Shown here: in pieces, positions 22,420 through 46,272 of the stretch
Layout: the number at the start of each line of letters is the position of its first letter
Position numbering within the stretch: position 1 is the first letter of the stretch
Assembly: GCA_041673665.1 (NCBI GenBank)
Contig: JBAYXF010000001.1
Coordinates: 1-55,879 of the forward strand
DNA: 55,879 bases
Direction of reading: 5' to 3'
Source: Alphaproteobacteria bacterium
Lineage (GTDB): Bacteria > Pseudomonadota > Alphaproteobacteria > Rs-D84
Made by a program: the position numbers and the translations under genes
The notes under the pieces: model-generated
Seen by the model: only the letters and a program-made list of their open reading frames with translations
What the model was told of the DNA's origin: nothing
The model's database searches: none

Positions 22420-23856
22420 TTGCAAAGCGAAGCCCGTGGAAATTTTTTATTACAAGCTTTGCTTGCGATTGCCCTGGTAATGTTTTTTATGCCCTTTGTG
22501 GCACAAAAATTATCATCAAAGAAAAACGATTCCGAATTAAGCGCAATTGCACGCCAAGCAAACAGTGCTGCATATGCTGCACGTGAATTTATAAAAGCAA
22601 GCAAAGACAATCTTGCTTATGGTCAGCAACACTTTAAAGATGATGATTTTACCGATTTATTGGAACCGTTTGGTCTACCTTTGGGATTTGTTACACAAAC
22701 CAGTGCAAACCAGGAAATATCTCTTTTTACGGGAAAAAAAGAATCTGAAATTTTAAGTGTGATAGTTTTGCGTGGCGGAAATTTATCGGAACTTAAAAAA
22801 AGGGAGCTGCTTACGCGCATTGGGCCGGACGCCGCCATCGCTGATGCAGATGGAATTTTACATGGGATCGGTGGTTGGGAAAAGAATCTGAAAGATTTTA
22901 AAATCAAGCCGGATGTTTCGGCTGTTTACATTTTAATCCCTTCAGATGATGATTTTTCGGAACTTGTTCGTAGAAAAGCAGAGAATCTGGCCCGGGCAAA
23001 ATTTCATACTAATTTAAACATGGGAAATTTTTCTATAAAAAATGTTGTTTCGTTGACCACAAGAAATGCAGAATTTGACGTTGCTAATTTTGATACACTT
23101 TCTATTACTGGTTCCGGCGGGGATAGAAAATTTAAAAACGATATAGGTGTGTTGTCCACAAAGCGTGCGGTATTTCAAAAGGGGAAGGATGACAACCCAT
23201 TAAGCATTTATCGTGGCGATCTAAAAGCAACTGCATTGTATGCTCAAACATTATTTAAATATGGATTGCCAGGAACCATTTATGCAAACAGTGCTTCGCT
23301 AAATTCTTTATCTATGTCTGCTGGGCATACAGGATTTTATGGTATGTATGATTGGGATGTCCACAGTGATGTTATCTTAAACAATGTTTCTATAGATACA
23401 GAATATTTAGAAGTAAATGGTTTTATAAACGCTTCGCGCGGGCAAGACGTTTTTATTGATCAAGATGAGTTAACTTATTTCAGTAAAAGCGGAGTAGAAA
23501 CAGAATCTATAACCACGGCATTTATAACCTTACGAGATCAAATATCCAGTGCGTTATTATCTGGCGACGATAGTGCTATAATTATGGATATCAGGCCGGC
23601 CGGAGTCTCCGTGCTTCCTGACATTTTAGTAGACACCATAGATAATGATAATTTTCAAATTCTTAAAAATCCGGACTTGGATGATGGGGAAGTTGTTACT
23701 TGTAGAAGTATAATTTCATCACTTTCATCATCATCAACTTATAATTCAAAATCAGTAATACAAAATATTATTTGCCAGTTTGTATTTTGGCAACGACTGG
23801 AACGCCGTATAGATATTAAACAATGTTTGATAGATGGAAACAGTGATTGTGGATAA
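22420..23856 (+). CDS. Large type IV pilin-like protein P1 (prepilin-type N-terminus, 478 aa)
   Basis: The TTG start is preceded by AGGAGGG. N-terminus is MQSEARG|NFLLQALLAIALVMFFMPF, with Gly at -1, Gln at +5 and a 20-residue hydrophobic helix. It is paralogous to the next two ORFs. Four Cys lie in the last 51 aa. Confidence 0.6.
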   Translation: MQSEARGNFLLQALLAIALVMFFMPFVAQKLSSKKNDSELSAIARQANSAAYAAREFIKASKDNLAYGQQHFKDDDFTDLLEPFGLPLGFVTQTSANQEISLFTGKKESEILSVIVLRGGNLSELKKRELLTRIGPDAAIADADGILHGIGGWEKNLKDFKIKPDVSAVYILIPSDDDFSELVRRKAENLARAKFHTNLNMGNFSIKNVVSLTTRNAEFDVANFDTLSITGSGGDRKFKNDIGVLSTKRAVFQKGKDDNPLSIYRGDLKATALYAQTLFKYGLPGTIYANSASLNSLSMSAGHTGFYGMYDWDVHSDVILNNVSIDTEYLEVNGFINASRGQDVFIDQDELTYFSKSGVETESITTAFITLRDQISSALLSGDDSAIIMDIRPAGVSVLPDILVDTIDNDNFQILKNPDLDDGEVVTCRSIISSLSSSSTYNSKSVIQNIICQFVFWQRLERRIDIKQCLIDGNSDCG

Positions 23857-25096
23857 TTGCATTGATAAAAAATATTTTTATAAAGAGCAAAAAGGTTCAG
23901 GGTTAATGGAAACCCTGCTGGCAATTGCAATTGTTGGTGCAATAATGCCCTTTGCCTATAATAGTGTAATGGATATGAGTCGCAAAGTCGCGGATGTATC
24001 TGAATCAAAACGTATTATTGCATGGCAAGATCCAGTTATGGCATATGTTCGTAAAAATCAGGCAGATTGGCCATCAAATGCCCAGGTAGAATTTGATGAG
24101 GAAGAGGTTGTTAATATTGGCACAGGAGATAATCGTTTGCTAAAACCATATGCTGGGTTTATTGAAAAACGCGAGGGTTCGGGGGGAATATCAATAAATG
24201 CATATCTTGCTTTTAAGCCGGTTGATATAAAAAAAGTAAGGGTTGCGAATATCGTTCAAAATATAGGTGTTGATGCCGCAATGGTGCAATCTGGCGGTGA
24301 AGCCGTCAGCCAAAGCGGGTGGAGTATTTCATCGGAATTATTTACAGAAGGTGATTTAATTTTCAGGGTTTCTGATATTTTGGGTGAAGACGATGTATAT
24401 AAATATTTACACAGAACATATCTGGATGATAAAGAATTAAATACTATGCGGCGAGATTTGGATATGGCAAAGAACAGTATATCTGGGGTTGGGAAAATAA
24501 CGGCGCAAACTATAAATGCAACAGGCGCAAAAGCCTGGTTTGTTAATTCTTCAAAAGTTATAACAAACGAAATCTTTTTCCCAGAGGGGATGACAATTGA
24601 TGCGTCCAAGGCCATATTTGGGTCTATAACAGTAAATGGCGACGTTAATGGTTTTAGAAAAATTACAGCAGATAAATTAAAACATGTTGGGACAATGTCC
24701 AGTGCTACATGGGCAACCAAGGGGGATATAATTGCGGACTCGGTCAATATAAATGGACCGGTACATGTTCAGCGTGATATGGTTGTAAAATCAGAAAGCG
24801 CACGGACAATTACTGGGTTTGCTGGAATTCGTACCCAGGCGGTTGCTACGCCATATTTATATGCGGACAATTTAATTTTCCAGGCAGGTTATGGAATAAC
24901 AATTTCCAGTGATTTATTATATTCTAGTTCTGGCGAATCAATCACAATAGGTAGCTGGAGGTTTCCATCAACAACAGGGCCGGGATTTTCAGAATTGATT
25001 TTGAAAAAAACAAGCGATGAAGAATTTGGAGAAGCGCTGGCAACGCCAGATAGTGAAGATTTTTCTCCGCTGATGACAAGCGGGTGGAAAGATTAA
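23834..25096 (+). CDS. Large type IV pilin-like protein P2 (420 aa)
   Basis: N-terminus ...DKKYFYKEQKG|SGLMETLLAIAIVGAIMPF, with Gly at -1 and Glu at +5. The leader aligns with that of P3, which favours the ATG at 23834 over the internal ATG at 23906. It overlaps the P1 stop by 23 nt. Confidence 0.6.
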   Translation: METVIVDNCIDKKYFYKEQKGSGLMETLLAIAIVGAIMPFAYNSVMDMSRKVADVSESKRIIAWQDPVMAYVRKNQADWPSNAQVEFDEEEVVNIGTGDNRLLKPYAGFIEKREGSGGISINAYLAFKPVDIKKVRVANIVQNIGVDAAMVQSGGEAVSQSGWSISSELFTEGDLIFRVSDILGEDDVYKYLHRTYLDDKELNTMRRDLDMAKNSISGVGKITAQTINATGAKAWFVNSSKVITNEIFFPEGMTIDASKAIFGSITVNGDVNGFRKITADKLKHVGTMSSATWATKGDIIADSVNINGPVHVQRDMVVKSESARTITGFAGIRTQAVATPYLYADNLIFQAGYGITISSDLLYSSSGESITIGSWRFPSTTGPGFSELILKKTSDEEFGEALATPDSEDFSPLMTSGWKD

Positions 25097-25112
25097 GTAA
25101 TTTATAAAATAA

Positions 25113-26417
25113 ATGAAAAACAAAAGAAAATTTTTTAAAAATGAATACGGCGGAATGATGTTAGAAATTCTGCTGTCGTTGGCAATTACAGTTGCTGTTG
25201 TTCCATTTGTTATGCGCGAGTTAAATAGTCGTACGCATCGTGCTGAAAATGTTCGTATTGCGCGCGATATCAGCGAGACTAAAGAAGCCTTGGAAAGATA
25301 TATGACTGCTCATAAACTCAAATTATTAGAGCCGTCTGGTCGTGTAGTTATCAAGGTTAAAATTAGTGATTTATCAGAATACGGAAACATTCCAAAAGAT
25401 CATGAAAAATTTCAAGCACGCATAATAAAATCTAGGAGTATCAGCGGGCGTACGGTGTTGTCTGGTATGGTTATATATGATTCTGCAGAGATATCGCCAA
25501 TTCGTACACGCGAAATAGCTGAACTGGGTGGGGAATCATCAGGGTTCATAGATAATAACCAAGCACATGGAGTATTTGGTACGTGGCATTCTAGAACAAA
25601 TATTTTTGATGCAACGTTCAGTAACAATTCTGTCGTAGAAAATACAAATACAATTTTGTCAGGTGGGGATTTTTTATGGAGGCTTCCTTCAAAAAATTCT
25701 CTTGATGCATCAATGTCAACAGACTTGCTAATCGGAGATAACAGTATAGAAGATGTTTCAACAATTGATACGTATGGGGCGAATTTTACAGAAATTTTAA
25801 AATCGGGTTTAATTAATGTAGAAACGGTTCAGATTACACCACGTGCGGAATTGTCTGCAGAATTAAATGTTTCCGGGGAAACGCTAGTAATCGGAGCATT
25901 AACATCAGATTCAAGAAGCGCAGAAATAAGCGGAAGTTTATCATTAACTGATACAGGTACAGTTTCAAAATTAGAAGCAAGAGAGATATGGGTTGGGGAT
26001 TTGACTTTGAACGGATTAACTATTAATGGCAGTGCCGAGCCAGCAATTTTAAAAGTTAGTAGCACGATAGATATTACAAGAGGAAAAATTACAACAACAA
26101 CAGCGACTATTGGATATACTGGATCTGTTTCTCCAAAGATTGTTGTAACAGACCGTATAGAAGATCCATCAAATTCTTCATATTATTGGGATTTAACAAC
26201 AGATAAAGCATCTTTTTCAGATGTTTACTGTGCTGAACTAAATCAGATATTAAAAACCGCAATTACTAATGAATCACAAACTATAAGAACCAAGACGGAA
26301 ACAATAATAAGGGCAATTGCCGCAAACAGCAATGCTACTATTTCTGATTATGTCAAGGCATTAAGTGAAATTCAAACCAGTGTAACAGCGAAATATAATA
26401 ACTTGAATTTAGACTAA
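25113..26417 (+). CDS. Large type IV pilin-like protein P3 (434 aa)
   Basis: N-terminus MKNKRKFFKNEYG|GMMLEILLSLAITVAVVPF, with Gly at -1 and Glu at +5. It shares internal motifs with P1 and P2. Confidence 0.6.
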   Translation: MKNKRKFFKNEYGGMMLEILLSLAITVAVVPFVMRELNSRTHRAENVRIARDISETKEALERYMTAHKLKLLEPSGRVVIKVKISDLSEYGNIPKDHEKFQARIIKSRSISGRTVLSGMVIYDSAEISPIRTREIAELGGESSGFIDNNQAHGVFGTWHSRTNIFDATFSNNSVVENTNTILSGGDFLWRLPSKNSLDASMSTDLLIGDNSIEDVSTIDTYGANFTEILKSGLINVETVQITPRAELSAELNVSGETLVIGALTSDSRSAEISGSLSLTDTGTVSKLEAREIWVGDLTLNGLTINGSAEPAILKVSSTIDITRGKITTTTATIGYTGSVSPKIVVTDRIEDPSNSSYYWDLTTDKASFSDVYCAELNQILKTAITNESQTIRTKTETIIRAIAANSNATISDYVKALSEIQTSVTAKYNNLNLD

Positions 26418-26451: not shown

Positions 26452-26930
26452 ATGAAAATAACGTGCCCTTTTTGCAAAGTAAATTATTCTGTTCGTAATG
26501 ATAATAATCATACATACGAATGTGCTGTATGTGGTTGTGTTTGGCGGGCACCGATCATTCAAAAAAAATCAAAAATATTGGTTTTCTCATTATACTTTTT
26601 GGTTTATTACTGGCTGCTTTATCTTTGGCCGCCATGATTTTATGGTTCCCACTTGGAAAGCAAAACGCTTTATCTGTTTATATGGACTCTGCACAATCGG
26701 TTGGCGATGTTTTAATTGTTTCAGGCCAGATTGAAAATAAGTCAGAAAAATTACACGGTATACCAGATTTAATGATTGTAATAAAAGATGATAATGATAC
26801 AGAAATATCAACACAAAAGTTTGCGCCACCAGCACCATTATTAGATGCCGGGGAAAAAACAAATTTTTCGGTTCAGGTTCATAATGTCCCAGAAAAAATA
26901 GCAAAAGTTTCAGTAGAGTTAAATGATTAA
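26452..26930 (+). pseudogene. MJ0042-type zinc-ribbon / TM / DUF3426-like protein, interrupted by a -1 frameshift
   Basis: Frame A (26452-) encodes MKITCPFCKVNYSV...YECAVCGCVW, a CxxC...CxxC zinc ribbon. Frame B (through 26930) encodes the expected TM helix (IGFLIILFGLLLAALSLAAMILW) and a beta-rich DUF3426-like domain. The frames meet at the A8 tract. Confidence 0.7.
26561..26568 (+). repeat. A8 homopolymer at the frameshift point (A_AAA_AAA in the upstream frame)
   Basis: Read directly: cattc-aaaaaaaa-tcaaaaat. One additional A would fuse the two frames. Confidence 0.9.
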
Positions 26931-26949
26931 TATGCAAAAGGTATTTAAT

Positions 26950-27405
26950 ATGAAAAAAATCTTTTTAACTATTTTGTTTTCAATAATTTGTATGTCCGCA
27001 TATGCAGCAATAAGCGCGGTAAGTATATTTTCTACCAGTACAGACTGGGAAAGGGTTACAGGATTACGCTATAGCCAATTTGATGTTTCTTTTGTGCGCG
27101 ATAAATCATTGGGCAGTAAAGGGATGGAGATTTATTTTCTAGATGGATTTCCATGCATAGGACAGGCTGAAACAGCCAGGGCTTGGATTTCCCCCAGTAA
27201 TTTTTCAAGCAAGGATAAAAAGGCAAACATGAACATCAGTTGTGTGCAACGTCCGAAACAAATTCGATTTGCATGGCGCGAAGCGAATGAAAAAGATTCT
27301 CAATCTAAAACAACCGGCATAATGACTTGTCAGATAGCCGGGGATGGACGTGAAATAGAAATTTTATTAAGTGATTGCGTCAAGGGGAAAAACTGGAATG
27401 AGTAA
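26950..27405 (+). CDS. Secreted hypothetical protein (about 151 aa)
   Basis: Sec signal MKKIFLTILFSIICMSAYA|A, with four Cys in the mature part. The start is taken at the ATG at 26950 rather than the track start at 26923. Confidence 0.5.
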   Translation: MKKIFLTILFSIICMSAYAAISAVSIFSTSTDWERVTGLRYSQFDVSFVRDKSLGSKGMEIYFLDGFPCIGQAETARAWISPSNFSSKDKKANMNISCVQRPKQIRFAWREANEKDSQSKTTGIMTCQIAGDGREIEILLSDCVKGKNWNE

Positions 27406-35049: not shown

Positions 35050-36189
35050 TTATTTTAATCCCAGTTTATGTCTTAATGAATGGCGCATATTACGCGAAGA
35101 GATGAAAGTTAAAATAATATTTCCCAACCATTTTGGTATAACTCGTTTTTTTTCTTTGTAAATTTTTAAAAATTTATCCATTTCTTTTTTATCTGCTTTG
35201 CTATCTGTATTATAAATAAAGCCGTAATCTTTGAAAAATCTTTGCAGGTTTTTATTTATTCCGATTATGCATGCGGGACAAGTATTTTTCTTTTTTGAAT
35301 ATGGATCAATAGAAGTATCAATATAATAAGAATTTATATTTTTTAACTTATCAATCATAATTTGCATTACCAATGGATTGTTATATCTGTGCAGACAAAT
35401 TAAATCAATTCCATCTTTGGCAAACAACGACAGATGCAATCCGGTGCCTTCGACCCCAGCAATTACATCCGCACCTTTCATTAATTGTATTTGTTTTTGA
35501 AGCGGCATAACATCCCAGCCAGTCTTGGTTGGAATTTGTGGATGTATAATCTTAAAACCGGCTTTTTTGAATATTTTTTCTATTTGATCTTCGCCCAAAA
35601 CCATATTGTTTGTAAATTTTGTCCGGGACAGATAAATCTTTTTTGGTGACTTTGGATCTGGCTTTACAGCGTCTGCAATCTTTTTAAATGTTTCACTGAA
35701 TTTTTTATTCGCATATAATTTTGTATAATTAAAAGAAGAATCAGGAACTAAAACATTTTTGAATCTGACGGGAGTATTAACAAATAAAAGTTTTTTAATT
35801 CCCATTAATTTATAAAACTCTTTCCCATTTGGTGCCAGAGGGCCATTGGTGACAATAACAAAAGTATGATTTTTATATTTTTTATCTAATATGGGCCATG
35901 CGCGTGAAAAACTGTTCGCAAGAAAGTGCCCAATAAAATCCTCGCCATACCCTAGTAAAATAATATCTTCATCAACATAAGGTGTGTTTTTATTTATTTT
36001 TTTGCTGTTCTTTACATGCCTAACTTTTTGTGAACAAAGTTTAATGTTTGCATTGTGTAAAGAAATAGTGGCATTTGGGATAACGCTGATTTTCAGTGAT
36101 TCATTTATATCTGGTTTTGCGTTAAAGCATTTAAGAAATTTATCTTTCGTAGCGATAAGATATCTGGTGGGATCTTTTAATGGTTTCAT
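35050..36189 (-). CDS. Glycosyltransferase family 61 (DUF563)-like protein
   Basis: GHFLANSFSRAWP near the N-terminal half and IYLSR...GFKIIHPQ...QIQLMKGADVIAGVEGTGLHLSLF, resembling the GT61 C-terminal pattern. It overlaps the lolD stop by 4 nt. Confidence 0.5.
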   Translation of the reverse strand: MKPLKDPTRYLIATKDKFLKCFNAKPDINESLKISVIPNATISLHNANIKLCSQKVRHVKNSKKINKNTPYVDEDIILLGYGEDFIGHFLANSFSRAWPILDKKYKNHTFVIVTNGPLAPNGKEFYKLMGIKKLLFVNTPVRFKNVLVPDSSFNYTKLYANKKFSETFKKIADAVKPDPKSPKKIYLSRTKFTNNMVLGEDQIEKIFKKAGFKIIHPQIPTKTGWDVMPLQKQIQLMKGADVIAGVEGTGLHLSLFAKDGIDLICLHRYNNPLVMQIMIDKLKNINSYYIDTSIDPYSKKKNTCPACIIGINKNLQRFFKDYGFIYNTDSKADKKEMDKFLKIYKEKKRVIPKWLGNIILTFISSRNMRHSLRHKLGLK

Positions 36190-36908
36190 CCGACAATTCC
36201 ATCTTTGATAGTAATAATTCTGTCAGCGCGTTTTGCCAGGCTCATATCGTGTGTTACGAATAACATAGACATATGTGTTTTTTTCGTCAGTGATAATAAT
36301 AAATCAAAAACATTTGAAGCATGCGCGGGATCCAGCGATCCTGTTGGTTCATCTGCCAGAACGATTTCTGGTTCGTTTGCTAATGCGCGTGCAACCGCGG
36401 TGCGTTGTTGTTCCCCACCGGACATTTCAGATGGTCTGTGATCACTACGGTGTAAAACATTTGCAGCTTTTAATAATTTTTTTGCACGGATGCGCGCGGC
36501 ATCTTCGTCCATATCATTTGCCAGCATGGGCAACATTACGTTTTCAAGCGCAGTAAACTCTTCCAGCAAATTATGACGTTGATAAACAAACCCCAGTTTT
36601 TTACGACGAATTGTTGTTCGCTGATCTTCGTTCATTTTATTAACTGGTGTACCCGCAATTGTAATTTGTCCCCCGCTGGGCTTTTCAAGTAATCCAACGC
36701 ATTGTAATAAAGTAGATTTACCGCAACCCGATGGTCCAACCAGTGCAACAATTTCCCCGCGCATTAATTCAAATCCGCCACCACGTAAAATGTTTAATGG
36801 TTGGCCAGCCTCTATAAAAGATTTTTTAATACCAACAACCGACATTATACATGCGCGCTTTTTTACAGATGATATAGATTTTAATATTGATGCTGCCATT
36901 TTATTCAT
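36186..36908 (-). CDS. lolD: Lipoprotein-releasing ABC transporter ATP-binding protein
   Basis: Walker A GPSGCGKSTLL, signature MSGGEQQR, and Walker B IVLADEPTGSLD. It is adjacent to a LolC/E permease. The start is ambiguous (36908, 36899 or 36845). Confidence 0.85.
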   Translation of the reverse strand: MNKMAASILKSISSVKKRACIMSVVGIKKSFIEAGQPLNILRGGGFELMRGEIVALVGPSGCGKSTLLQCVGLLEKPSGGQITIAGTPVNKMNEDQRTTIRRKKLGFVYQRHNLLEEFTALENVMLPMLANDMDEDAARIRAKKLLKAANVLHRSDHRPSEMSGGEQQRTAVARALANEPEIVLADEPTGSLDPAHASNVFDLLLSLTKKTHMSMLFVTHDMSLAKRADRIITIKDGIVG

Positions 36909-38154
36909 TCCTTAAAACTTCTACCGGATCGGTTTTAGCGGCTTTCCACGCAGGGTAAAGGGTCGCTAAAAATGCCAGTGCAATTGCAACAAATGCAATT
37001 CCAAACACATTCCAAAATTCTAGTCTGGATGGTAATTCAGATAAAAAATATAATTCTGCTGGGAATAAATCACGTCCAGTCATCCATTGTATAAACTGGC
37101 GTATTGGTTCAATGTATTTTGCGACCAGAACGCCCAATACAGTTCCCGTTGTAGCGCCCAGCATTCCAATACTGCTGCCGCATAAAATAAATATTTTCAT
37201 CATGCTGTGGCGTGAAACACCAAATGTACGCAGAACCGCAATATCGCGCGATTTGTCTTTGACCAACATAACCAGGCTGGATACGATATTAAATGCAGCA
37301 ACGATTACGATAAGCAGTAAAATTAAAAACATTACGTTTGATTCAACCTGCAACGCACCAACAAAGCCACGATTTAAATCACGCCAATCACGAACCACAA
37401 ATCCGGTTGGCAGACTGGCGGACAAAGCGTCGCGAACATCCGTTGTTTTTTCAGGATTTTTTAAAAATAAATCGATATGTGAAACGCCATCAGGAGAGTT
37501 CAAGAATTTTTGTGCAGTTTCTAATGGCATAAAGATATATCCAGAATCATATTCATACATACCCGCAAAGAATGTTGTAGCAACCGGATAAGACTGTATC
37601 CGTGGGATTGTTCCAAATGCAGTCGCAGTGCCGCCATTTGCGCTGATAAGTGTAGCATTATCATTTCTGGTGAGATTCAAGTTTCTGGCAAGCGATGCAC
37701 CCATTGCCAATTGTCCGTTATTGATCTTTGCCAGTGGTGTTCCATAAATTTTTGTGCCGGCTTGGAATTTTCTTTCCAAATCAGACATCCTGATTCCGCG
37801 AACCATTGCGCCAGAATTCTTCCCGTCCGCAGACACCATTACTTGCCCTTCTAGAACCGGAATAATATCAGTGGTATTAGCAGCGACAATTTTATTGTCT
37901 TTCATCTTTCCAATCAGATAATCAAAGTCCTGAATTGCGCCGTCTTGGTGATAAACAACAACGTGTCCGTTCATACCAACAATACGCGAAAGCAGGGTGT
38001 CGTGAAAACCGCTCATTACGGACATAACGACGATAAGTGTTGCAACGCCCAGTGCAATTCCCAGCAAAGATACCCAAGAAACCACGCTGCCGAAACCACG
38101 CCCTTTGGCCCTTAAATATCTGAATGCAATTTTCTTTTCAAGACGACTAAACAT
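36901..38154 (-). CDS. lolE: Lipoprotein-releasing system permease LolC/LolE
   Basis: 417 aa with MacB-like periplasmic domain plus FtsX topology. N-terminus FRYLRAKGRGF is typical of LolC/E. Confidence 0.85.
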   Translation of the reverse strand: MFSRLEKKIAFRYLRAKGRGFGSVVSWVSLLGIALGVATLIVVMSVMSGFHDTLLSRIVGMNGHVVVYHQDGAIQDFDYLIGKMKDNKIVAANTTDIIPVLEGQVMVSADGKNSGAMVRGIRMSDLERKFQAGTKIYGTPLAKINNGQLAMGASLARNLNLTRNDNATLISANGGTATAFGTIPRIQSYPVATTFFAGMYEYDSGYIFMPLETAQKFLNSPDGVSHIDLFLKNPEKTTDVRDALSASLPTGFVVRDWRDLNRGFVGALQVESNVMFLILLLIVIVAAFNIVSSLVMLVKDKSRDIAVLRTFGVSRHSMMKIFILCGSSIGMLGATTGTVLGVLVAKYIEPIRQFIQWMTGRDLFPAELYFLSELPSRLEFWNVFGIAFVAIALAFLATLYPAWKAAKTDPVEVLRNE

Positions 38155-38156
38155 TT

Positions 38157-38771
38157 TTATTCCTTAAAATCATCAGGGTTTATATTTAATTCTGTTTTTA
38201 TTCTGTGCTCTAACCTTTTTTGAATTTCATCAAAAACTTGCAATAAAGCCGGTTCTGAAGCAAACATATCACGATAAGACTTGCTGAAATACCATTTCCA
38301 ATAAACCCCATTATCATAAGAACCAATATGATCCAACGTCTTTGAAAATAATGTTTGGAAACATACATCTAATCTATCAAGCATTTTTACAAATTTTGAT
38401 TCTGGTGTTTTTTGTTCCTCGTATTCTTGCCATAAAGTTTCAAACTCTGAATTATTCAGCAATTTTGTAAATTCATTCATTATTTCAGTTTCGTCTTTTT
38501 CTTTTTTTTCACGTGCCGCATCATCATTTAATGTTTTATGCGCTGGAATATCATGAGATTTACTTTCTGGCAAGTCGTGCGCAGCACAAAGTTTTAAAAC
38601 GCGTTCCATATTAAGTGTTACGGATGCTTTTGGAACAAATGTTATCGCCATCAATGACAGCATAAAACAATGTGCAGCCACAGATTGTTGTTCCCCATCG
38701 GACATTCTGGTTGTGCGTTTTTCATAATGTAAATGTTCCGCTGTTTTAAAAAATTCAATAATATTATTCAT
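38157..38771 (-). CDS. HD-domain phosphohydrolase (YfbR-like 5'-nucleotidase family)
   Basis: QSVAAHCF...AAHDLPESKSHDIP matches the H...HD...D pattern of HD_3 proteins. The start is taken at the ATG at 38771, overlapping the upstream stop by 8 nt. Confidence 0.6.
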   Translation of the reverse strand: MNNIIEFFKTAEHLHYEKRTTRMSDGEQQSVAAHCFMLSLMAITFVPKASVTLNMERVLKLCAAHDLPESKSHDIPAHKTLNDDAAREKKEKDETEIMNEFTKLLNNSEFETLWQEYEEQKTPESKFVKMLDRLDVCFQTLFSKTLDHIGSYDNGVYWKWYFSKSYRDMFASEPALLQVFDEIQKRLEHRIKTELNINPDDFKE

Positions 38772-40074
38772 CCAAATACTCGCGCAGTTTATCTCCGGAA
38801 AGTTCAGCGGCCGGTTCATCGTCCGCAGAGTCTACGATTGAAATAACACGTGGGCTCATGAATATCACCAATTCTGCAAATGGGTTTATTAATGTTTCAG
38901 ATGTTGTTACAAAGCTGTGTGTTGGGATGCCGATAATTACATAATTATCACCCAGTTTTGTTGGAACGTTAAAACTGGCCAGTTCCCCAGCGGTTGTACG
39001 CAGTGCAATTTTCGCATCTACTTTTTTCATATCGGCGTATTTTCCATATTTACCAGTTGCGCCAACGATTAAATCAGTTTCCAATCTGTCTTCGCGTGAG
39101 CATTGACCAATATCAAATCTGCTTTGCCAGCCGTTTGGTATTACAAATGTTCCCTGGGAAATTAAAACTACATTTGCTTGGTCGGATAAAAATGTTTGTA
39201 ATGTTTTTGTGTTTATTTCTGGGGATACAACCAGCAATCTGCCAACAACGCCAGGGATAGACATTTTGACATTCTTTTCCCCAAATGCGGGCAGCATATT
39301 CATCCAAACAATTGGATTGTCGGTACGTGGATATACACGGTATACATCCATATCCCATGCAACCAAGAATTTTTTATTTCCGATATCGGAAACGATATCA
39401 CGAACTTTCTTTTCGATTTGATAATTCCCTTCGAACGCCAAGGTTTTATCTTCCCAGTTAGTTATTAAATTACGCAAGTCAGCACCATGCATTGCATCAA
39501 TTAATGCCATGATTACGTATTGATCTTTAGGCATTTTCATCAGCCATTTTCCACGACTGGAAATACGAAGCTCTCTGGTGTCGTCGTCATAGGTATAGTA
39601 AGTTTTACCAAGTTTACAAATTAGTTCTACGGCGTCTTCTAGTGTTCCAGATGTAATCTCACCACTGATTAAGTCAGGTAATTTCTCACTGGCAACAATT
39701 TTAATTTTTGTTCCATCAAGTAATTTTTCCAAAACAGCTGGTACATTTTTTTTCTGGAAAGAAAAATTTTCTACAGCAAAATCTGGAAGATTATCGCCCT
39801 TGTTCAAACGAACAATTTCAACGGGCGTTGTTGGCAGAACAGATAATATACTTTGGTTGTCCCAATCAACTTTGCATCGTTTTGGCAAATCAATTGCAAA
39901 TTTTTGTGCGGTATCTGTTGTTAAAGCAGCCTTGCGTGGAAAGATCGGAACAGAATGTTCGTCCACTACAATGTTTTCAACCACTTGGACAGTGTCATAT
40001 TGTTGTTGATTTCGACTTTGAAATTGTTGGCATGCACCAACAAATAAAATCAAAAGCAAATATAATTTTCTCAT
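38764..40074 (-). CDS. Outer-membrane lipoprotein with a divergent secretin-like C-terminal domain
   Basis: Lipobox LFVGAC. The C-terminal half reads NVVLISQGTFVIPNGWQSRFDIG ... ASFNVPTKLGDNYVIIGIPT ... FAELVIFMSPRVISI. This parallels the secretin pattern (vLssP.i.t.nn..a.i.vG ... t.v.v.dG.tvviGGl ... eLlifitPrii). Confidence 0.4.
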   Translation of the reverse strand: MRKLYLLLILFVGACQQFQSRNQQQYDTVQVVENIVVDEHSVPIFPRKAALTTDTAQKFAIDLPKRCKVDWDNQSILSVLPTTPVEIVRLNKGDNLPDFAVENFSFQKKNVPAVLEKLLDGTKIKIVASEKLPDLISGEITSGTLEDAVELICKLGKTYYTYDDDTRELRISSRGKWLMKMPKDQYVIMALIDAMHGADLRNLITNWEDKTLAFEGNYQIEKKVRDIVSDIGNKKFLVAWDMDVYRVYPRTDNPIVWMNMLPAFGEKNVKMSIPGVVGRLLVVSPEINTKTLQTFLSDQANVVLISQGTFVIPNGWQSRFDIGQCSREDRLETDLIVGATGKYGKYADMKKVDAKIALRTTAGELASFNVPTKLGDNYVIIGIPTHSFVTTSETLINPFAELVIFMSPRVISIVDSADDEPAAELSGDKLREYLDE

Positions 40075-40083
40075 TTTGGTCCC

Positions 40084-40392
40084 TTATATATTCATAACAC
40101 GTTCAAATTCTTCGAGTGTCATTTCATAGATTGGTTTATTACTGGGGGTAATCAAATTTTTTGCACCCTGAAATTCGGTTTGATATTTTTTTATCAATGC
40201 TTTTAATTTGGCGTCGGTGGGATTTATTTTTTCGCCGTACGCATTCAGCATTTCCAGAACATCTGCCGCAAAAAAGCGCCCCGTATAATTTTCAGCTGCG
40301 ATACCACCTTTTTGGGTACGTATTGCGGCGGATAAAATTTTCAAAGCCTCATAAAATCCGGCTATACGGATATATCTTTCTTCCGCGGTCAT
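40084..40392 (-). CDS. Hypothetical cytoplasmic protein, 102 aa (first gene of the secretin-like/lol operon)
   Basis: ORF only, predicted helical. It lies 9 nt upstream of the lipoprotein gene on the same strand. Confidence 0.4.
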   Translation of the reverse strand: MTAEERYIRIAGFYEALKILSAAIRTQKGGIAAENYTGRFFAADVLEMLNAYGEKINPTDAKLKALIKKYQTEFQGAKNLITPSNKPIYEMTLEEFERVMNI

Positions 40393-40529: not shown

Positions 40530-40919
40530 ATGAAAAGAACTTTTGTCCTTGTTGCTTTATCGTTTGCGCTTTTGGTGGGATGTTCATCTGCTAATCGTGG
40601 ATCCATTGACGATGCGACGGTTTTAAATTGGGAAAATGATATGGTTACGACCGAACAATTTGTTCGTGATCATAAAAATTGTTTGGGAATAACACGTTCC
40701 CCTTATGAACCCAGATCTAGATTAGCCAAGCTTATCAGCCCAAATCAATCCAGTTTGATGCCAGATTGGGATGGCTTATGGGTGACTTTTCAATCCAATG
40801 AAAATAAAGACATCGGGCAGCGTTCTTTGATGTCGGTTCCTCCTAATTCCAGCTCCAGATCAGTTGGGGCGTATCGTAAATGTATGATGCGTCGTGGTTA
40901 TTTGTTGCGCGCAAATTAA
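40530..40919 (+). CDS. Hypothetical lipoprotein, 129 aa
   Basis: Signal peptide with lipobox LLVGC. No recognised domain. Confidence 0.5.
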   Translation: MKRTFVLVALSFALLVGCSSANRGSIDDATVLNWENDMVTTEQFVRDHKNCLGITRSPYEPRSRLAKLISPNQSSLMPDWDGLWVTFQSNENKDIGQRSLMSVPPNSSSRSVGAYRKCMMRRGYLLRAN

Positions 40920-41648: not shown

Positions 41649-43421
41649 ATGAATTTAACAGAAGGCTCTTTTTTGTGTTTAGATATAGGTTCGGGCGGGG
41701 TGCACGCGGTCGCTGCACGGGTTTGTTTTGGACGGCTTAAAGTTTCATCAAATATATATGTTGAATCCAGGGATATTGTGTATGCGGTCAAGACGGCGGT
41801 GGATAATTTAGAAGAACAAATAGGGGCCAGATTCGACAAGGCGTTTGTTACGGGAAATTTCGGAGAAATTAAATCAGAAATTTTTTCAAGAAAAAGCGTA
41901 TGGGAAACAGAACGAAAAATTACACCAAATGATATTCTAGAACAAATATCAGATGTTACCCAAGATGATATTTCTGTATTACATATAATGCCTTTACGTT
42001 ATGATTTAGGGGGTGCGCGAAATCTTTCTAACCCGCTGGGGCATATTGATCATGCATTGCATTCGGTGTTTAATGTAATTGCTTATTTGAACAAGGGTTT
42101 AATGCGCGCAAAATCTGCGTTGCATGCTGCACATCTAGAGTCCGAAGGTTTTTTCGATCCGATGTTTTTGCTGGGATTGTCTGCGCGCAAAGCATCAGAA
42201 AATTCTGTATTCATAGATTTTGGCGCAGAATTTACCAGCGTTTCTATGTGGACCGCGCGTGGGCCGATGTTGATTAAAAAAATACCAATGGGCGGGATTG
42301 ATATTACAAGGGCAATTGCTAATACTTTTAATTTACCAATTATAGAAGCAGAAAGATTAAAAATTTCCAGCATGAATCTGGAACAATCTGATATGGATAG
42401 ATTTACTCCGGCGGATTCTAAATATGATATAACCAGATTTGATGTGAACGAAATAGCAAGCAGTGTTTTTTCTGAAATTATATGTCAGGTTGGTGATGTT
42501 TTAAGCACAGGAATAGAAAAATATAATCCAGAACGACTGTATGTAAGTGGTGGTGGCTCTGGTACTAACGGATTAGAAAAGTTTTTAAAAAAAGAATTTG
42601 GTATGCCGGTTAAAAATATGGGCTCGTTCGGTATAGTTAATTCATTGGCAGAATTTGTATGGAATACTGAATCTGAAAGGGTCAAAGGATATTTAGAACG
42701 CAGAAAAAAATGGGAAAAATTTTTTAACTTTTTAGCAGCACCATTGAATTGGAGATTTTATCCACGTCGTAAAAAAATTATTCCGATTATGCCCAGTACT
42801 TTATGTTGGGACATGCGAAGTTCAGACACTTATGCCAGATTTGAATCTGCAGATATCAGTATGATTCATGTTGATATAATGGATGGATTTTATGTTGAAA
42901 GAATTGCCAGTGGAATTGATGAACTTCGATTCATACGTGCGCATACCGCGGCTCATTTACACGTTCATTTAATGACGGAAAACCAGGCGACTTGGACGAA
43001 AGAAGCGATTGAATGTGGTGCGGACACAATTATTGTTTCAACCGGAACAAATGGTGTAATTCGTGCGTTAAAAGAAATACAATCTGCGGGAAAACGTTCT
43101 GGAATTGCGTTACATCCAGAATCTTCGTTAGAAGTTATAGCCCCAGTTTTAAGGGGTGTTGATGAAGTAATGGTAATGTCAGTTATCCCAGGAGAATCAG
43201 GACAAGAGTTTATAGAAGAGTCAATATCAAGAATTGCTTCTCTTGCTAATACCAGACGCAAACATGGATTAAAATTTAAAATTTCTGTTGATGGCGGAAT
43301 AAATCCGGAAACGGCGAAAAAATGTTGGGCGGCTGGCGCGGATTTTCTAGTCTCTGGCAGTTTTTTAAGTGGTGCTCCAGATTTTGCCGTAGCGGTGCAA
43401 GAACTTTTGGAAAAAAAGTAG
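41649..43421 (+). CDS. ftsA: FtsA-like cell division protein fused in frame to a ribulose-phosphate 3-epimerase-like domain
   Basis: aa 1-350 are an actin-fold FtsA (LDIGSGGVHAV, 1C/SHS2 region ITPNDI..VLHIMPLRYDLGG, GGIDITRAIA, LYVSGGGSG). aa 351-370 (RRKKWEKFFNFLAAPLNWRF) look like the FtsA amphipathic membrane-targeting helix. aa 375-590 carry RPE motifs (IHVDIMDG, HVHLM, MSVIPGESGQEF, VDGGI, GADFLVSGS). No stop codon separates the parts. Confidence 0.7.
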   Translation: MNLTEGSFLCLDIGSGGVHAVAARVCFGRLKVSSNIYVESRDIVYAVKTAVDNLEEQIGARFDKAFVTGNFGEIKSEIFSRKSVWETERKITPNDILEQISDVTQDDISVLHIMPLRYDLGGARNLSNPLGHIDHALHSVFNVIAYLNKGLMRAKSALHAAHLESEGFFDPMFLLGLSARKASENSVFIDFGAEFTSVSMWTARGPMLIKKIPMGGIDITRAIANTFNLPIIEAERLKISSMNLEQSDMDRFTPADSKYDITRFDVNEIASSVFSEIICQVGDVLSTGIEKYNPERLYVSGGGSGTNGLEKFLKKEFGMPVKNMGSFGIVNSLAEFVWNTESERVKGYLERRKKWEKFFNFLAAPLNWRFYPRRKKIIPIMPSTLCWDMRSSDTYARFESADISMIHVDIMDGFYVERIASGIDELRFIRAHTAAHLHVHLMTENQATWTKEAIECGADTIIVSTGTNGVIRALKEIQSAGKRSGIALHPESSLEVIAPVLRGVDEVMVMSVIPGESGQEFIEESISRIASLANTRRKHGLKFKISVDGGINPETAKKCWAAGADFLVSGSFLSGAPDFAVAVQELLEKK

Positions 43422-43527: not shown

Positions 43528-46272
43528 ATGAGAATAAAAAAAGCAATTATTGTTGGTTTAGTGCTACCTTTGGTATCAGAAATCTGTTCAATGTCAGCTG
43601 GGGCTGTAACTTATATGACGACGGCTTCGTCGCGTCCAAGTACGACTGCACGCATGCCGACGTTGTCATACAGCGCGTCGTCCAGCACATCGTCCAGCAC
43701 GACATCAACAAATGCTGGCTTGCTTGCAACTTGTGCAAATCCATTGCCAGATCGTTTGACATCGGGACGTTGTATCGACAGATATGATTCTTGTTTGCGT
43801 CAGGATAACGTTTGTGGTGAACATTTTGAACTTTGCTATAATTTAAAACAATTTAATAAATCTCGTATTATGTGCCAAGAATATTTGGCGCAATGTCCAG
43901 CCGAAGCAGTTAAAGCAATATTTGGAAATTCTGTAACGACATCTAATGATTTGTTGTCGGCAAACCGCACCATGTGTGATGGGGAATCTCTTTTGACCAA
44001 AAGAACATTTTCACCAGCGTTGGGCGATATTGGGGTTGCCGCCGACAGTCGTATAGACTTGGCCATTAAAGAGGGTAAAAACTGGGCAGCCGCTAACAGT
44101 GTTAAAACATGTAATAAAATTGCGGACGCTTGTATACAAAATGCTTGTAAGAAATCCCCACAAAAATGTATTTCTTTGGATGGGTTTTCTGACATAGATG
44201 CATCTGAAATGGTTAATATCGCCACATCTGGCGAAACTACATTGCGTATAAATGCAGATATGCTGACAATGTGGCTTAATAATATGGCATGGGATGGTGA
44301 TAATGTTAAAAATTACATCAAAGAACAATGCCGTGATACTGTTGGTTCTAATGAGTGGTGCTTTATGGTCACAAATGGTACGCCGGCGAAAGAAGTTGAT
44401 TTAACCGACAGCTTTAATATTCAAGAAGTTTACCAAGATATTATGTATAATGGCGTTGGTGCTCGTTGGAAAATGGCACAGTCCAAGATAAAAGAATGGG
44501 CTGCATTAGCAACTAAGAAATCCGTAGAACAATGTAAAGATGCAATGACAGATTGTGCCGTGAATGCTTGTGGTGAAGGATCCAAGGCCCGTTGCTATGG
44601 TTTGGCTAAAGATGGCAATACTGTCAGTATAAAAAATAAAGCTGGTTCTGATATTACAGGCCAATGTGAAAATTTGATTGAAAATAATCAATATTGTAAA
44701 GATGTATTCCGTAATAAAGATACGGGCGAAGATGGTGACGTTTGGGCAGCGGTATGGACCGAGGACTTAATGGGCGCAATTGTCGGATTGGATTCAGATT
44801 TACAAAAAGCATTTAACGAAGCAGCAGTTGCTCAAATGCGTAGCAGTTGCCAGGCTCAGGCTGAAAAATGTGTAGAAAGTGAATGTGGAACAGATTTCTC
44901 GCGTTGCTTTATTACCAGTATAGAGGCAAAGAAAAATAGCAGTGTTTCTTTTTCTGAGGGTTCAGCAATAAGCAGCAATTTATATGCTGGTGGATTTGAT
45001 GAAGTTTTGGCACGTAACTTGTGTATGTTAAAGATTAAAAAATATACAGATTGTATAGATTACTTTGATGTTCAGTATGCCAAGGCAACAACCGGGACCA
45101 GTGCAGATTCTTGGGGAACGTCAAGCAATGTTCGTAATGCATGGCTAGATGCTGCAAATAGTGATTCTGCAGATAAGGTTTGCCGTGTATCGGAAACTTA
45201 TATAGATCAAGTTGATGAATCTGGAAATGCTGTTGATACTACTAAAAAATTAGCACCTAAGGTTAAAACTTGTGCTACACAAGAACGTAGTATATTTGAT
45301 GGTTTATTGTCAGATATCAGCAAACGTGCTAATTCTGTATTAGAACGCGAAGCAAATGATCTTAAGAATGCATGTGAAAATAGCAATGCCAAGGGTTCAA
45401 CCGGTAAAAATTATATTTGGGCGGCTTTGTCTGACTTGGATTCATCCGATGAATATGATGGGTTCAGCGATGTTACTGCAACCAGTAATCCGTTTGACGG
45501 GTTCTGTGCGGTCAAGGTAACGATCCGTTCCAACAATTCCAAGGTAAACGATGCGCTGGGTAGTGATAAATATATGTATTACCCAAAGGGTACATCTATG
45601 CAATGTTTGGGTTTGACAACAAGCGAGTTGGAAAAAGTTGAACGTGCAGTTGCATCAGATGTTAATTTCTGCGGCAAAGGCGAAACAGCATCAACAGGCG
45701 GATGTGTAGAAAAATTGTCCGGGTTGCAAAAAACCCTTCGGATTGGTGGCGCAACAATTGCTGGTGTGGCAGTCGGCGGTTTGGGTGGAACCTTGGCAGG
45801 GAATGCTTTGGGGAACGCTACTACAAAAAGTAGCAAGCTGTCCGCTGCAGATACTGCTTTATATGCAGACTGTCAAAGCTGTTTTAAAGCAGGGGGTAAA
45901 GGATATAGTGGATTACAAGCATGTGTAGCTGTTGATGATCCAGATAACCCAGATGCAACCGAAGCATTAGCAAAATGTAATAACAAAATAAGCGAACTAC
46001 AAGCAAAGAGAGGCACTGGTAAAAAATCTGGCAGTAGTGGTTTGTTAAATATGTCTAGTACTGGTGGTAAAATAGGCGCTATTGCTGGTGCAGGGCTTGG
46101 TGGTTTAGCCGGTGGACTTCTTGCTGGTAATGCTATCAAGGAAAATGCAGATACAAAGCTTGAAGATGCACGGCAACAAGCCATAGCAGACTTTAATGCT
46201 AACACAGATATAAATTGTTATATCAATGGCAAAAAAGTCGCATCGTATGGTCAGGATATGATTGTTAAATAA
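43528..46272 (+). CDS. Large secreted cysteine-rich protein with C-terminal glycine-zipper segments (914 aa)
   Basis: Signal peptide MRIKKAIIVGLVLPLVSEICSMSAGA, then a Ser/Thr-rich linker. There are 38 Cys in the mature part, including repeated C-x6-C-x4-C-x6/7-C modules. Two Gly-zipper hydrophobic stretches are present (IGGATIAGVAVGGLGGTLAGNALG and GGKIGAIAGAGLGGLAGGLLAGNAI). A strong terminator follows. Confidence 0.6.
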   Translation: MRIKKAIIVGLVLPLVSEICSMSAGAVTYMTTASSRPSTTARMPTLSYSASSSTSSSTTSTNAGLLATCANPLPDRLTSGRCIDRYDSCLRQDNVCGEHFELCYNLKQFNKSRIMCQEYLAQCPAEAVKAIFGNSVTTSNDLLSANRTMCDGESLLTKRTFSPALGDIGVAADSRIDLAIKEGKNWAAANSVKTCNKIADACIQNACKKSPQKCISLDGFSDIDASEMVNIATSGETTLRINADMLTMWLNNMAWDGDNVKNYIKEQCRDTVGSNEWCFMVTNGTPAKEVDLTDSFNIQEVYQDIMYNGVGARWKMAQSKIKEWAALATKKSVEQCKDAMTDCAVNACGEGSKARCYGLAKDGNTVSIKNKAGSDITGQCENLIENNQYCKDVFRNKDTGEDGDVWAAVWTEDLMGAIVGLDSDLQKAFNEAAVAQMRSSCQAQAEKCVESECGTDFSRCFITSIEAKKNSSVSFSEGSAISSNLYAGGFDEVLARNLCMLKIKKYTDCIDYFDVQYAKATTGTSADSWGTSSNVRNAWLDAANSDSADKVCRVSETYIDQVDESGNAVDTTKKLAPKVKTCATQERSIFDGLLSDISKRANSVLEREANDLKNACENSNAKGSTGKNYIWAALSDLDSSDEYDGFSDVTATSNPFDGFCAVKVTIRSNNSKVNDALGSDKYMYYPKGTSMQCLGLTTSELEKVERAVASDVNFCGKGETASTGGCVEKLSGLQKTLRIGGATIAGVAVGGLGGTLAGNALGNATTKSSKLSAADTALYADCQSCFKAGGKGYSGLQACVAVDDPDNPDATEALAKCNNKISELQAKRGTGKKSGSSGLLNMSSTGGKIGAIAGAGLGGLAGGLLAGNAIKENADTKLEDARQQAIADFNANTDINCYINGKKVASYGQDMIVK

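Follow-up and report, generated by a model that had tools for sequence, protein, structure and literature searches.

A divergent, shortened lipoprotein secretin encoded in the lol operon of Rs-D84 Alphaproteobacteria and its probable place in a dispersed type IVb-like machine

The stretch of DNA analyzed here (the window, 55,879 nucleotides [nt]; contig JBAYXF010000001.1, positions 1 to 55,879) comes from an alphaproteobacterium of the Rs-D84 lineage. The subject of the analysis is an open reading frame (ORF) of 436 amino acids (aa) at 38764..40074 on the minus strand, for which the original prediction, made from the sequence alone, had proposed a divergent secretin-like lipoprotein encoded among lol genes. 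The predicted lipoprotein N-terminus was confirmed: MRKLYLLLILFVGAC|QQ is a signal peptide followed by a lipobox, and its VGAC conforms to the pattern [LVI][ASTVI][GAS]C. Cys15 was invariant in 32 close homologues (alignment A1), and the lipobox column held Cys in 37 of the 42 family sequences that covered it and in 21 of the 23 nearest canonical secretins. More than 1,219 homologues were found, the best 120 of which were all at least 64% identical to the window protein, and relatives were encoded in 295 species-level reference genomes; thus, the ORF is a genuine gene under conservation rather than a reading frame that arose by chance. All of the listed homologues were annotated as hypothetical proteins and lacked a Pfam domain. 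Their hosts were Candidatus Enterousia and its relatives in the order Rs-D84, Alphaproteobacteria. The GC content of the gene (0.376) was typical of the window.

Six segments could be delimited along the protein, all read from the minus strand. Residues 1 to 15 (40030..40074) form the signal peptide and lipobox, with a predicted acylated Cys15, conserved in the homologues, and Gln at +2. They are followed by a conserved N-terminal linker (residues 16 to 76; 39847..40029) that contains Cys67 and has a per-column identity of 0.70 in the clade; from its position, this linker is probably the counterpart of the LG domain of BfpB (PMC12531336). Next come an N0/STN-like domain (residues 77 to 172; 39559..39846), assigned from the secondary structure of the model, Foldseek, weak STN matches, and hhalign, and an N3-like ring-building domain (residues 175 to 249; 39328..39552), which shows a beta-alpha-beta-beta-alpha-beta pattern in the model and aligned to type IVb secretins. 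The secretin domain (residues 257 to 414; 38833..39306), recognized from hhalign comparisons of separate slices, is shortened by three deletions and contains Cys325 in the motif FDIGQC. The protein ends, according to the model, with an acidic linker and an amphipathic helix (residues 415 to 436, helix 427 to 435; 38767..38832); helix residues G427, L430, R431, and L434 were invariant in A1, and in the deep alignment A2 the helix was mostly confined to the Enterousia clade. The three C-terminal motifs on which the original prediction had relied were present as NVVLISQGTFVIPNGWQSRFDIG (residues 301 to 323), ASFNVPTKLGDNYVIIGIPT (residues 366 to 385), and FAELVIFMSPRVISI (residues 399 to 413), and hhalign aligned all three with the secretin-domain motifs to which they had been likened.

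Curated models did not recognize the protein. A match to PF00263 and TIGR02520 had been suggested as a check of the prediction, and neither these nor STN, TcpQ, or any other NCBIfam secretin model matched the 436-aa protein even at an E value of ≤1. Among 10 intermediate family members compared with Pfam, PF00263 was likewise absent at E ≤1 and only weak STN matches appeared. Sequence searches of the PDB with the single protein, with the close-family profile A1, and with the deep-family profile A2 gave no secretin match; a merged profile (A4) matched BfpB, PilQ, and GspD in the PDB, but true secretins had been included in it and the result is not independent evidence.

The relationship to secretins became apparent through intermediates. 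An exhaustive search of 1.84 billion cluster representatives with a hidden Markov model (HMM) of the family recovered 164 relatives, and when 10 of the distant matches (profile E values from 1e-12 to 1e-6) were scanned, all 10 proved to be PF00263 secretin proteins, some of them with STN or TcpQ. An hhalign comparison of 38 diverse family members with 23 secretins gave a probability of 100% and an E value of 3.5e-40 over 383 columns, spanning the full length from the lipobox to the terminal ELVxxxxPR strand. Because the secretins had been recruited through the N-terminal two-thirds of the protein, C-terminal slices were compared separately: residues 283 to 436 alone gave an E value of 3.2e-10 and the C-terminal 107 aa (residues 330 to 436) alone an E value of 8e-8, with 2.9e-29 for the N-terminal part. 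BLASTP matched mid-family members to canonical secretins at an E value of 1e-15 over almost the full length, and an HMM built from 23 PF00263 secretins of the type IVb kind matched the window ORF directly with 102 bits.

The predicted fold agreed with these results. An AlphaFold 2 run with the 32 close homologues reached a mean predicted local distance difference test (pLDDT) score of only 48 and was excluded from the fold search; with an alignment of 77 sequences, the monomer model that was used (m852b31134d95) reached a pLDDT of 89.7 and a predicted template-modeling (pTM) score of 0.79. All 24 Foldseek matches in the PDB at E ≤1e-3 were secretins. The two best were the competence PilQ of Vibrio cholerae and then BfpB, and others included InvG, GspD/ExeD/EpsD, phage pIV, and the N domains of EscC and XcpQ; the N0 region matched the N-terminal domains of EscC, XcpQ, GspD, and PilQ. 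Global template-modeling (TM) scores of the matches were low because the monomer model of a multidomain protomer misses the interdomain angles. In the model, linker, N0, N3, and secretin domain succeed the lipidated Cys in this order, and N1/N2 and an S domain are lacking; that an STN-like N0 and a ring-building N domain precede the secretin domain is indicated by the model, Foldseek, and hhalign together. The long amphipathic strands and the terminal ELVxxxxPR strand were kept and confidently modeled. The proposed divergent secretin thus held up in the profile search, in the family alignment, in the 102-bit HMM match, and in the predicted fold, and membership of the 38764-40074 product in the secretin superfamily, as a very divergent member, is supported by sequence comparison and by the model.

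The barrel is where the family departs most from its relatives. The barrel core (residues 285 to 414) had a median length of 122 aa versus 180 aa in the nearest canonical secretins, a difference of about 58 residues, whereas N0 plus N3 were near-equal in length (175 versus 181). Three gaps, following FDIGQC, GELASF, and IIGI, account for the missing residues and include the region equivalent to the conserved VPlLGdIP loop; this loss is the reason why curated models miss the protein. Cys67 (linker) and Cys325 (barrel) occurred in all 52 family sequences and in none of the 23 related secretins (BfpB is not among the 23), and most family members had exactly two Cys residues. The pair may form a disulfide by which linker and barrel are held together. 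Within the clade, per-column identity was highest in the secretin domain (0.82 to 0.86) and lowest in N0 (0.55).

The closest structural parallel is BfpB of the bundle-forming pilus (BFP) of enteropathogenic Escherichia coli (PDB 9u5s), the second-best Foldseek match (E value of 2e-8) and the best PDB sequence match of the merged profile. BfpB has been described as a lipoprotein-type secretin composed of an LG linker, N0, N3, and secretin domain, lacking N1/N2 and the S domain (PMC12531336), and, like the window protein, it is acylated at its N-terminus and has the order linker-N0-N3-secretin. The machine that it serves, of type IVb, also has an ATPase and a platform protein. The two differ in mature length (about 535 aa for BfpB versus about 421 aa) and in genetic setting: bfpB lies inside the bfp cluster beside bfpG, and the partner BfpG carries a signal peptide and has an N0-like fold, whereas the window gene lies in a lol operon and the product of its upstream neighbor has no signal peptide. 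No direct HMM or BLAST match linked the window protein to BfpB. The nearest canonical secretins by sequence were also lipoproteins, their best NCBIfam models being MshL and PilN (TIGR02520), and their gene clusters had the order secretin-small ORF-T2SSE-T2SSF, with F-type transfer genes beside one of them. Together with the BfpB fold match and layout, these relatives bear out the suggestion of a lipidated secretin of the type IVb kind. In size and simplicity the window protein recalls pIV of phage f1 (PDB 7ofh), which is small and consists of N0, N3, and secretin domain only (fold match E value of 8.6e-5). The mature form of pIV is about 405 aa long, and pIV is not lipidated, is phage encoded, and has a full-length secretin domain; the secretin region of the window protein (residues 257 to 414) appears shorter still than that of pIV.

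The gene sits in an operon with lipoprotein-sorting genes. Directly upstream, at 40084..40392 on the minus strand, lies a 102-aa ORF (orf102). Downstream on the same strand follow an HD_3 hydrolase gene (38157..38819), which overlaps the 3' end of the secretin-like gene by 56 nt, a lolCE-type lipoprotein-release permease gene (36901..38154; TIGR02212, 415.6 bits, above the cutoff of 362.45), a LolD-like ATP-binding cassette ATPase gene (36186..36908; best NCBIfam model TIGR02211 LolD, 250 bits, below the cutoff of 307.75), and a GT61-family glycosyltransferase gene (35050-36189) with a 4-nt overlap with lolD. Across 86 loci of Rs-D84/Enterousia found with A1, the conserved operon was orf102-secretin-lolCE-lolD, present in 83 loci. 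Individually, orf102 was adjacent upstream in 83, lolCE directly downstream in 84, usually after a gap of 6 to 35 nt, and lolD syntenic in 82. The HD hydrolase occupied the same position in only one of the other loci, that of the closest relative, and the GT61 gene in two. Judged from this distribution, the HD gene is a recent insertion and the GT61 gene, in the same way, a local addition to the operon's 3' end. Thus, the gene context described in the original prediction was correct with regard to orf102, the HD hydrolase, lolCE, and lolD, but the HD hydrolase is not part of the conserved operon and was ruled out as a component of the system. Across the clade, identity to the window copy was 64 to 70% for the secretin-like protein and 70 to 77% for LolE/LolD, compared with approximately 35% for FtsQ and 46% for FtsA. 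The prediction had also stated that a lol operon is not a known secretin context. As a lipoprotein the window protein is a predicted Lol substrate, in addition to being co-operonic with lolCE and lolD, and our literature search found no case of a secretin in a lol operon; we know of no LolCDE/LolA/LolB system that includes a secretin.

More distant relatives shared parts of this arrangement. Two deep-branching relatives with 36 to 41% identity also directly precede lolCE-lolD, and in relatives with 25 to 32% identity a small transmembrane protein (Z, 165 to 188 aa) follows instead of lolCE. All five distant loci examined had two acidic cytoplasmic proteins, X and Y, upstream, and three of the five also had a double helix-turn-helix (HTH) protein. 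X and Y are paralogous; the double HTH_3 protein is about 330 aa long and at most 66% identical between lineages. These loci, arranged as HTH-X-Y-secretin-like followed by Z or lolCE-lolD, are L004:4678-7760, L087:7245-10004, L089:4214-9461, L088:2-3984, and L005:1-2629; in the vicinity of L089 we also observed two VirB6/TrbL-like membrane proteins and mlaA/mlaC. The orf102 product, which has no signal peptide, no transmembrane segment, and no Pfam or NCBIfam match, aligned with the C-terminal domain of the Y proteins (hhalign probability of 96%, E value of 4e-9), and tblastn agreed. By this similarity, orf102 is a minimal copy of the Y domain, and the invariant pair thus consists of a Y-domain protein and a secretin-like lipoprotein. 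No homologues of HTH, X, Y, or Z were found in the window apart from this match of Y to orf102, and Z had no BLAST similarity to the small ORFs adjoining canonical type IVb secretins. Divergently from orf102 lies a gene for a 129-aa lipoprotein (40530..40919, plus strand; lipobox LLVGC), which was present in 82 of the 86 loci at 66 to 83% identity (97% in the closest relative), occurred in Enterousia-clade loci only, and matched no Pfam or NCBIfam family; as a speculation, it could be an accessory or pilotin-like partner.

A pilus-assembly cluster without a secretin was found on the same contig. The source contig is 80,792 bp long, and the DNA 5' of the window was retrieved by an exact-DNA search of metagenome contigs. 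About 8.2 to 12.9 kb before window position 1 (L093:4343-8956, L092:22431-22526), four co-directional pilus-assembly genes adjoin lpxC and lpxK. The first encodes a 417-aa PilO-like protein, whose orthologue in a 73%-identical genome has PF06864 PAP_PilO; the second, a 233-aa protein, matched TIGR03021 PilP (E value of 1.7e-7; 32.3 bits, slightly below the cutoff of 34.65); the third is a 547-aa T2SSE ATPase (214 bits); and the fourth is a 357-aa T2SSF platform protein (76 bits). The Walker A motif of the ATPase, GPTSSGKSTT, is missed by a strict GspE Walker A pattern, and the name that PGAP gives its orthologues (Flp pilus assembly complex ATPase component TadA) is an apparent misnomer. The PilO- and PilP-like proteins had no BLAST similarity to the small ORFs adjoining canonical type IVb secretins. 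The same cluster occurs in a related locus (L094) and contains no secretin. In the pil operon of plasmid R64, pilN stands immediately before pilO, pilP, pilQ (ATPase), and pilR (platform). We take the Enterousia PilO(PF06864)-PilP(TIGR03021)-T2SSE-T2SSF genes to be this pilO-pilP-pilQ-pilR series with the pilN position empty. Like the window protein, PilN of the R64 thin pilus (TIGR02520) is a lipoprotein secretin; unlike it, the window protein escapes TIGR02520 at E ≤1, is encoded about 47 kb from the pil cluster, has a shortened secretin domain, and belongs to the chromosomal core of a lineage rather than to a plasmid.

Several observations fit a single, dispersed system. The 436-aa protein was the sole secretin-like ORF in about 71 kb of the source genome, and in approximately 90 loci (1.69 Mb of related DNA) there was never more than one secretin-like ORF per locus. 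The T2SSE ATPase was as widespread and conserved as the secretin-like protein, and at least 10 ATPase matches lay on contigs of exactly the same length as those of secretin-like matches, an indirect sign of co-occurrence; one contig was examined directly. Within the window, 12 kb from the secretin-like gene, three large prepilin-like proteins, P1 to P3 (478, 420, and 434 aa), are encoded at 22420..26417 on the plus strand and were recognized by their N-terminal sequences: in P2 and P3, Gly occupies position -1 and Glu position +5, and a hydrophobic helix comes next, whereas P1 gave a weak match to the ComGG minor pilin (E value of 0.019). None of the three matched Pfam. We infer that they are candidate fiber subunits of the same machine. 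The idea that pieces of one fiber system lie dispersed in this DNA therefore stands with regard to the secretin-less PilO/PilP/ATPase/platform cluster and the prepilin-like N-termini, but no homology of the trio to R64 PilV emerged. Directly after the trio (26520-27405, plus strand) are genes for a 136-aa transmembrane protein with an FxLYD/DUF3426-like domain and a 160-aa signal-peptide protein, which may share its operon; the remainder of the window contains housekeeping genes.

Homology, domain layout, the lipobox, the secretin-less cluster on the same contig, and clade-wide conservation lead us to read the gene as the PilN/BfpB-type outer-membrane secretin of a type IVb-like machine (R64 thin-pilus/BFP type), relocated into the lol operon and shortened, a reading to which we give a probability of about 0.75. 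The most economical reading of the whole is that such a machine is a conserved core feature of Rs-D84 (Candidatus Enterousia) with its genes dispersed on the chromosome. In this scheme, the precursor would be exported, acylated at Cys15, and probably released from the inner membrane by the LolCE/LolD encoded downstream, with no need for a separate pilotin, as for PilN, BfpB, and TcpC. The N3 and secretin domains would drive multimerization in the outer membrane into a putative ring-shaped channel, with the conserved linker spanning from the lipid anchor to N0 and a probable Cys67-Cys325 disulfide fastening this linker to the barrel. N0 would dock in the periplasm to the inner-membrane complex of PilO-like, PilP-like, T2SSE, and T2SSF proteins, presumably by contact with PilP, and a fiber, plausibly made of the three prepilin-like proteins, would traverse the channel. 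The secretin gene would have left the pilus cluster for the orf102-secretin-lolCE-lolD operon and lost about 58 residues of its barrel core.

A number of results weigh against this assignment. They include the lack of any curated secretin model match and the failure of the family-only profiles to find a secretin in the PDB, as well as the shorter barrel core, with which a functional gated double barrel is not guaranteed. The gene is not adjacent to the assembly cluster, the co-occurrence of secretin and ATPase is supported indirectly, homology of the trio to known pilins could not be detected outside the N-termini, and no prepilin peptidase was seen in the DNA covered. Furthermore, the HTH-X-Y-secretin-like-Z module of distant members comes without visible pilus genes, and the linkage to lolCE-lolD and a Y-domain protein is deeper and tighter than a simple need for sorting would require. 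The last of these points could be accommodated if the relocation were itself functional, the pared-down, disulfide-stapled ring binding both the Lol transporter and the cytoplasmic Y-domain protein to make a minimal conduit across the envelope, a proposal that we regard as unlikely. Through such a conduit, lipoproteins might, also doubtfully, be exported to the surface or inserted into the outer membrane of an ultra-reduced bacterium that has no LolB, besides or in place of pilus exit. A weaker form, in which the protein would be the smallest secretin barrel known to function and its gate would be altered to suit fibers of pilins of 420 to 478 aa, is held just as tentatively.

An outright repurposing for the Lol pathway, in which the ring works with LolCE/LolD instead of or besides a pilus, is improbable in our view. 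LolB is absent from this lineage, as from other Alphaproteobacteria, and the ring could be an outer-membrane acceptor or conduit for lipoproteins; alternatively, it could export lipoproteins to the cell surface. N0 would in either case make contact with LolCE through the periplasmic domain of the latter. We hold these specific forms to be just as improbable. It draws on the near-constant position of lolCE, lolD, and orf102 around the gene with short gaps, on the same lolCE-lolD adjacency in the two deep lineages, on a level of conservation close to that of LolE/LolD and well above that of FtsQ and FtsA, on the remodeled barrel, and on the transmembrane protein Z, which takes the lolCE position in more distant relatives. 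However, the secretin-less type IVb cluster in the same genome offers an obvious conventional job, lipoprotein secretins require Lol merely to reach the outer membrane, and members with 25 to 32% identity are not beside lol genes. Neither the sequence (Pfam and NCBIfam) nor the fold (Foldseek) showed any likeness to LolA or LolB, and synteny inside one order is perhaps partly inheritance.

The lost barrel residues, including the equivalent of the VPlLGdIP loop, the failure of curated secretin HMMs, and the family-specific Cys pair, which suggests an altered architecture, could instead point to a degenerate relic that forms no pore: a periplasmic lipoprotein tethered to the outer membrane that retains N0, N3, and a partial barrel fold and serves as a scaffold or envelope structure. 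This is hard to reconcile with the conservation of the secretin domain, which exceeds that of every other part of the protein and points to strong selection, or with the retention of the amphipathic strands and the ELVxxxxPR strand in the model. The assembly machine would otherwise have no exit through the outer membrane, and Foldseek also matched the model to pIV, a small secretin of phage origin; we therefore rate a relic as quite improbable. The pIV match and the one canonical relative that adjoins F-type transfer genes could also suggest chance capture of a secretin from a mobile element, either a filamentous phage (pIV-like) or a conjugative plasmid (PilN). The gene nevertheless has a fixed chromosomal place in a housekeeping operon in 83 of the 86 loci and relatives in 295 species-level genomes, there are no phage or plasmid genes nearby, and its GC content is that of the window. 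Such a capture is highly improbable, and synteny and context effectively rule out a filamentous-phage or plasmid origin.

Members of Rs-D84/Enterousia, which occur in gut, rumen, and termites and are widespread in the gut, have genomes of 0.7 to 1.0 Mb and possess neither respiration nor the standard uptake transporters. They are believed to rely on partner organisms, and a genome survey of Rs-D84 did not report pili (PMC12306168). On the relocated-secretin reading, these bacteria would carry a complete-looking and strongly conserved type IVb-like machine with its parts scattered on the chromosome, and its outer-membrane channel would be a lipoprotein secretin that is unusually short, lacks annotation, and escapes all curated models. 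The machine would be an obvious candidate for partner attachment, for acquisition of DNA or nutrients, or for secretion. The secretin superfamily and lipoprotein secretins of the type IVb kind are already known; what is new is a family outside all curated models, with a shortened barrel, its own Cys pair, and a lol-operon context away from the machine. Such a family is a natural minimal variant for asking which elements of the double barrel and of the gate a secretin can do without, and the conserved genetic link between secretin and Lol may reflect the delivery of self-piloting secretins. A new family HMM would label more than 1,000 proteins now called hypothetical.

Other genes in the window deserve brief mention. 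A 914-aa protein encoded at 43528-46272 on the plus strand has a signal peptide and contains many Cys residues; an N-terminal stretch is rich in Ser and Thr, and hydrophobic segments toward the C-terminus are rich in Gly. The protein matched no Pfam or NCBIfam family and is possibly a large surface protein. A CtpA-like protein is encoded at the 3' end of the window. At 41649-43421 on the plus strand, a 590-aa protein joins FtsA to a complete ribulose-phosphate 3-epimerase domain, and since the same fusion was also called in distant clade members (L001 and L003), it is lineage-wide and not an assembly artifact.

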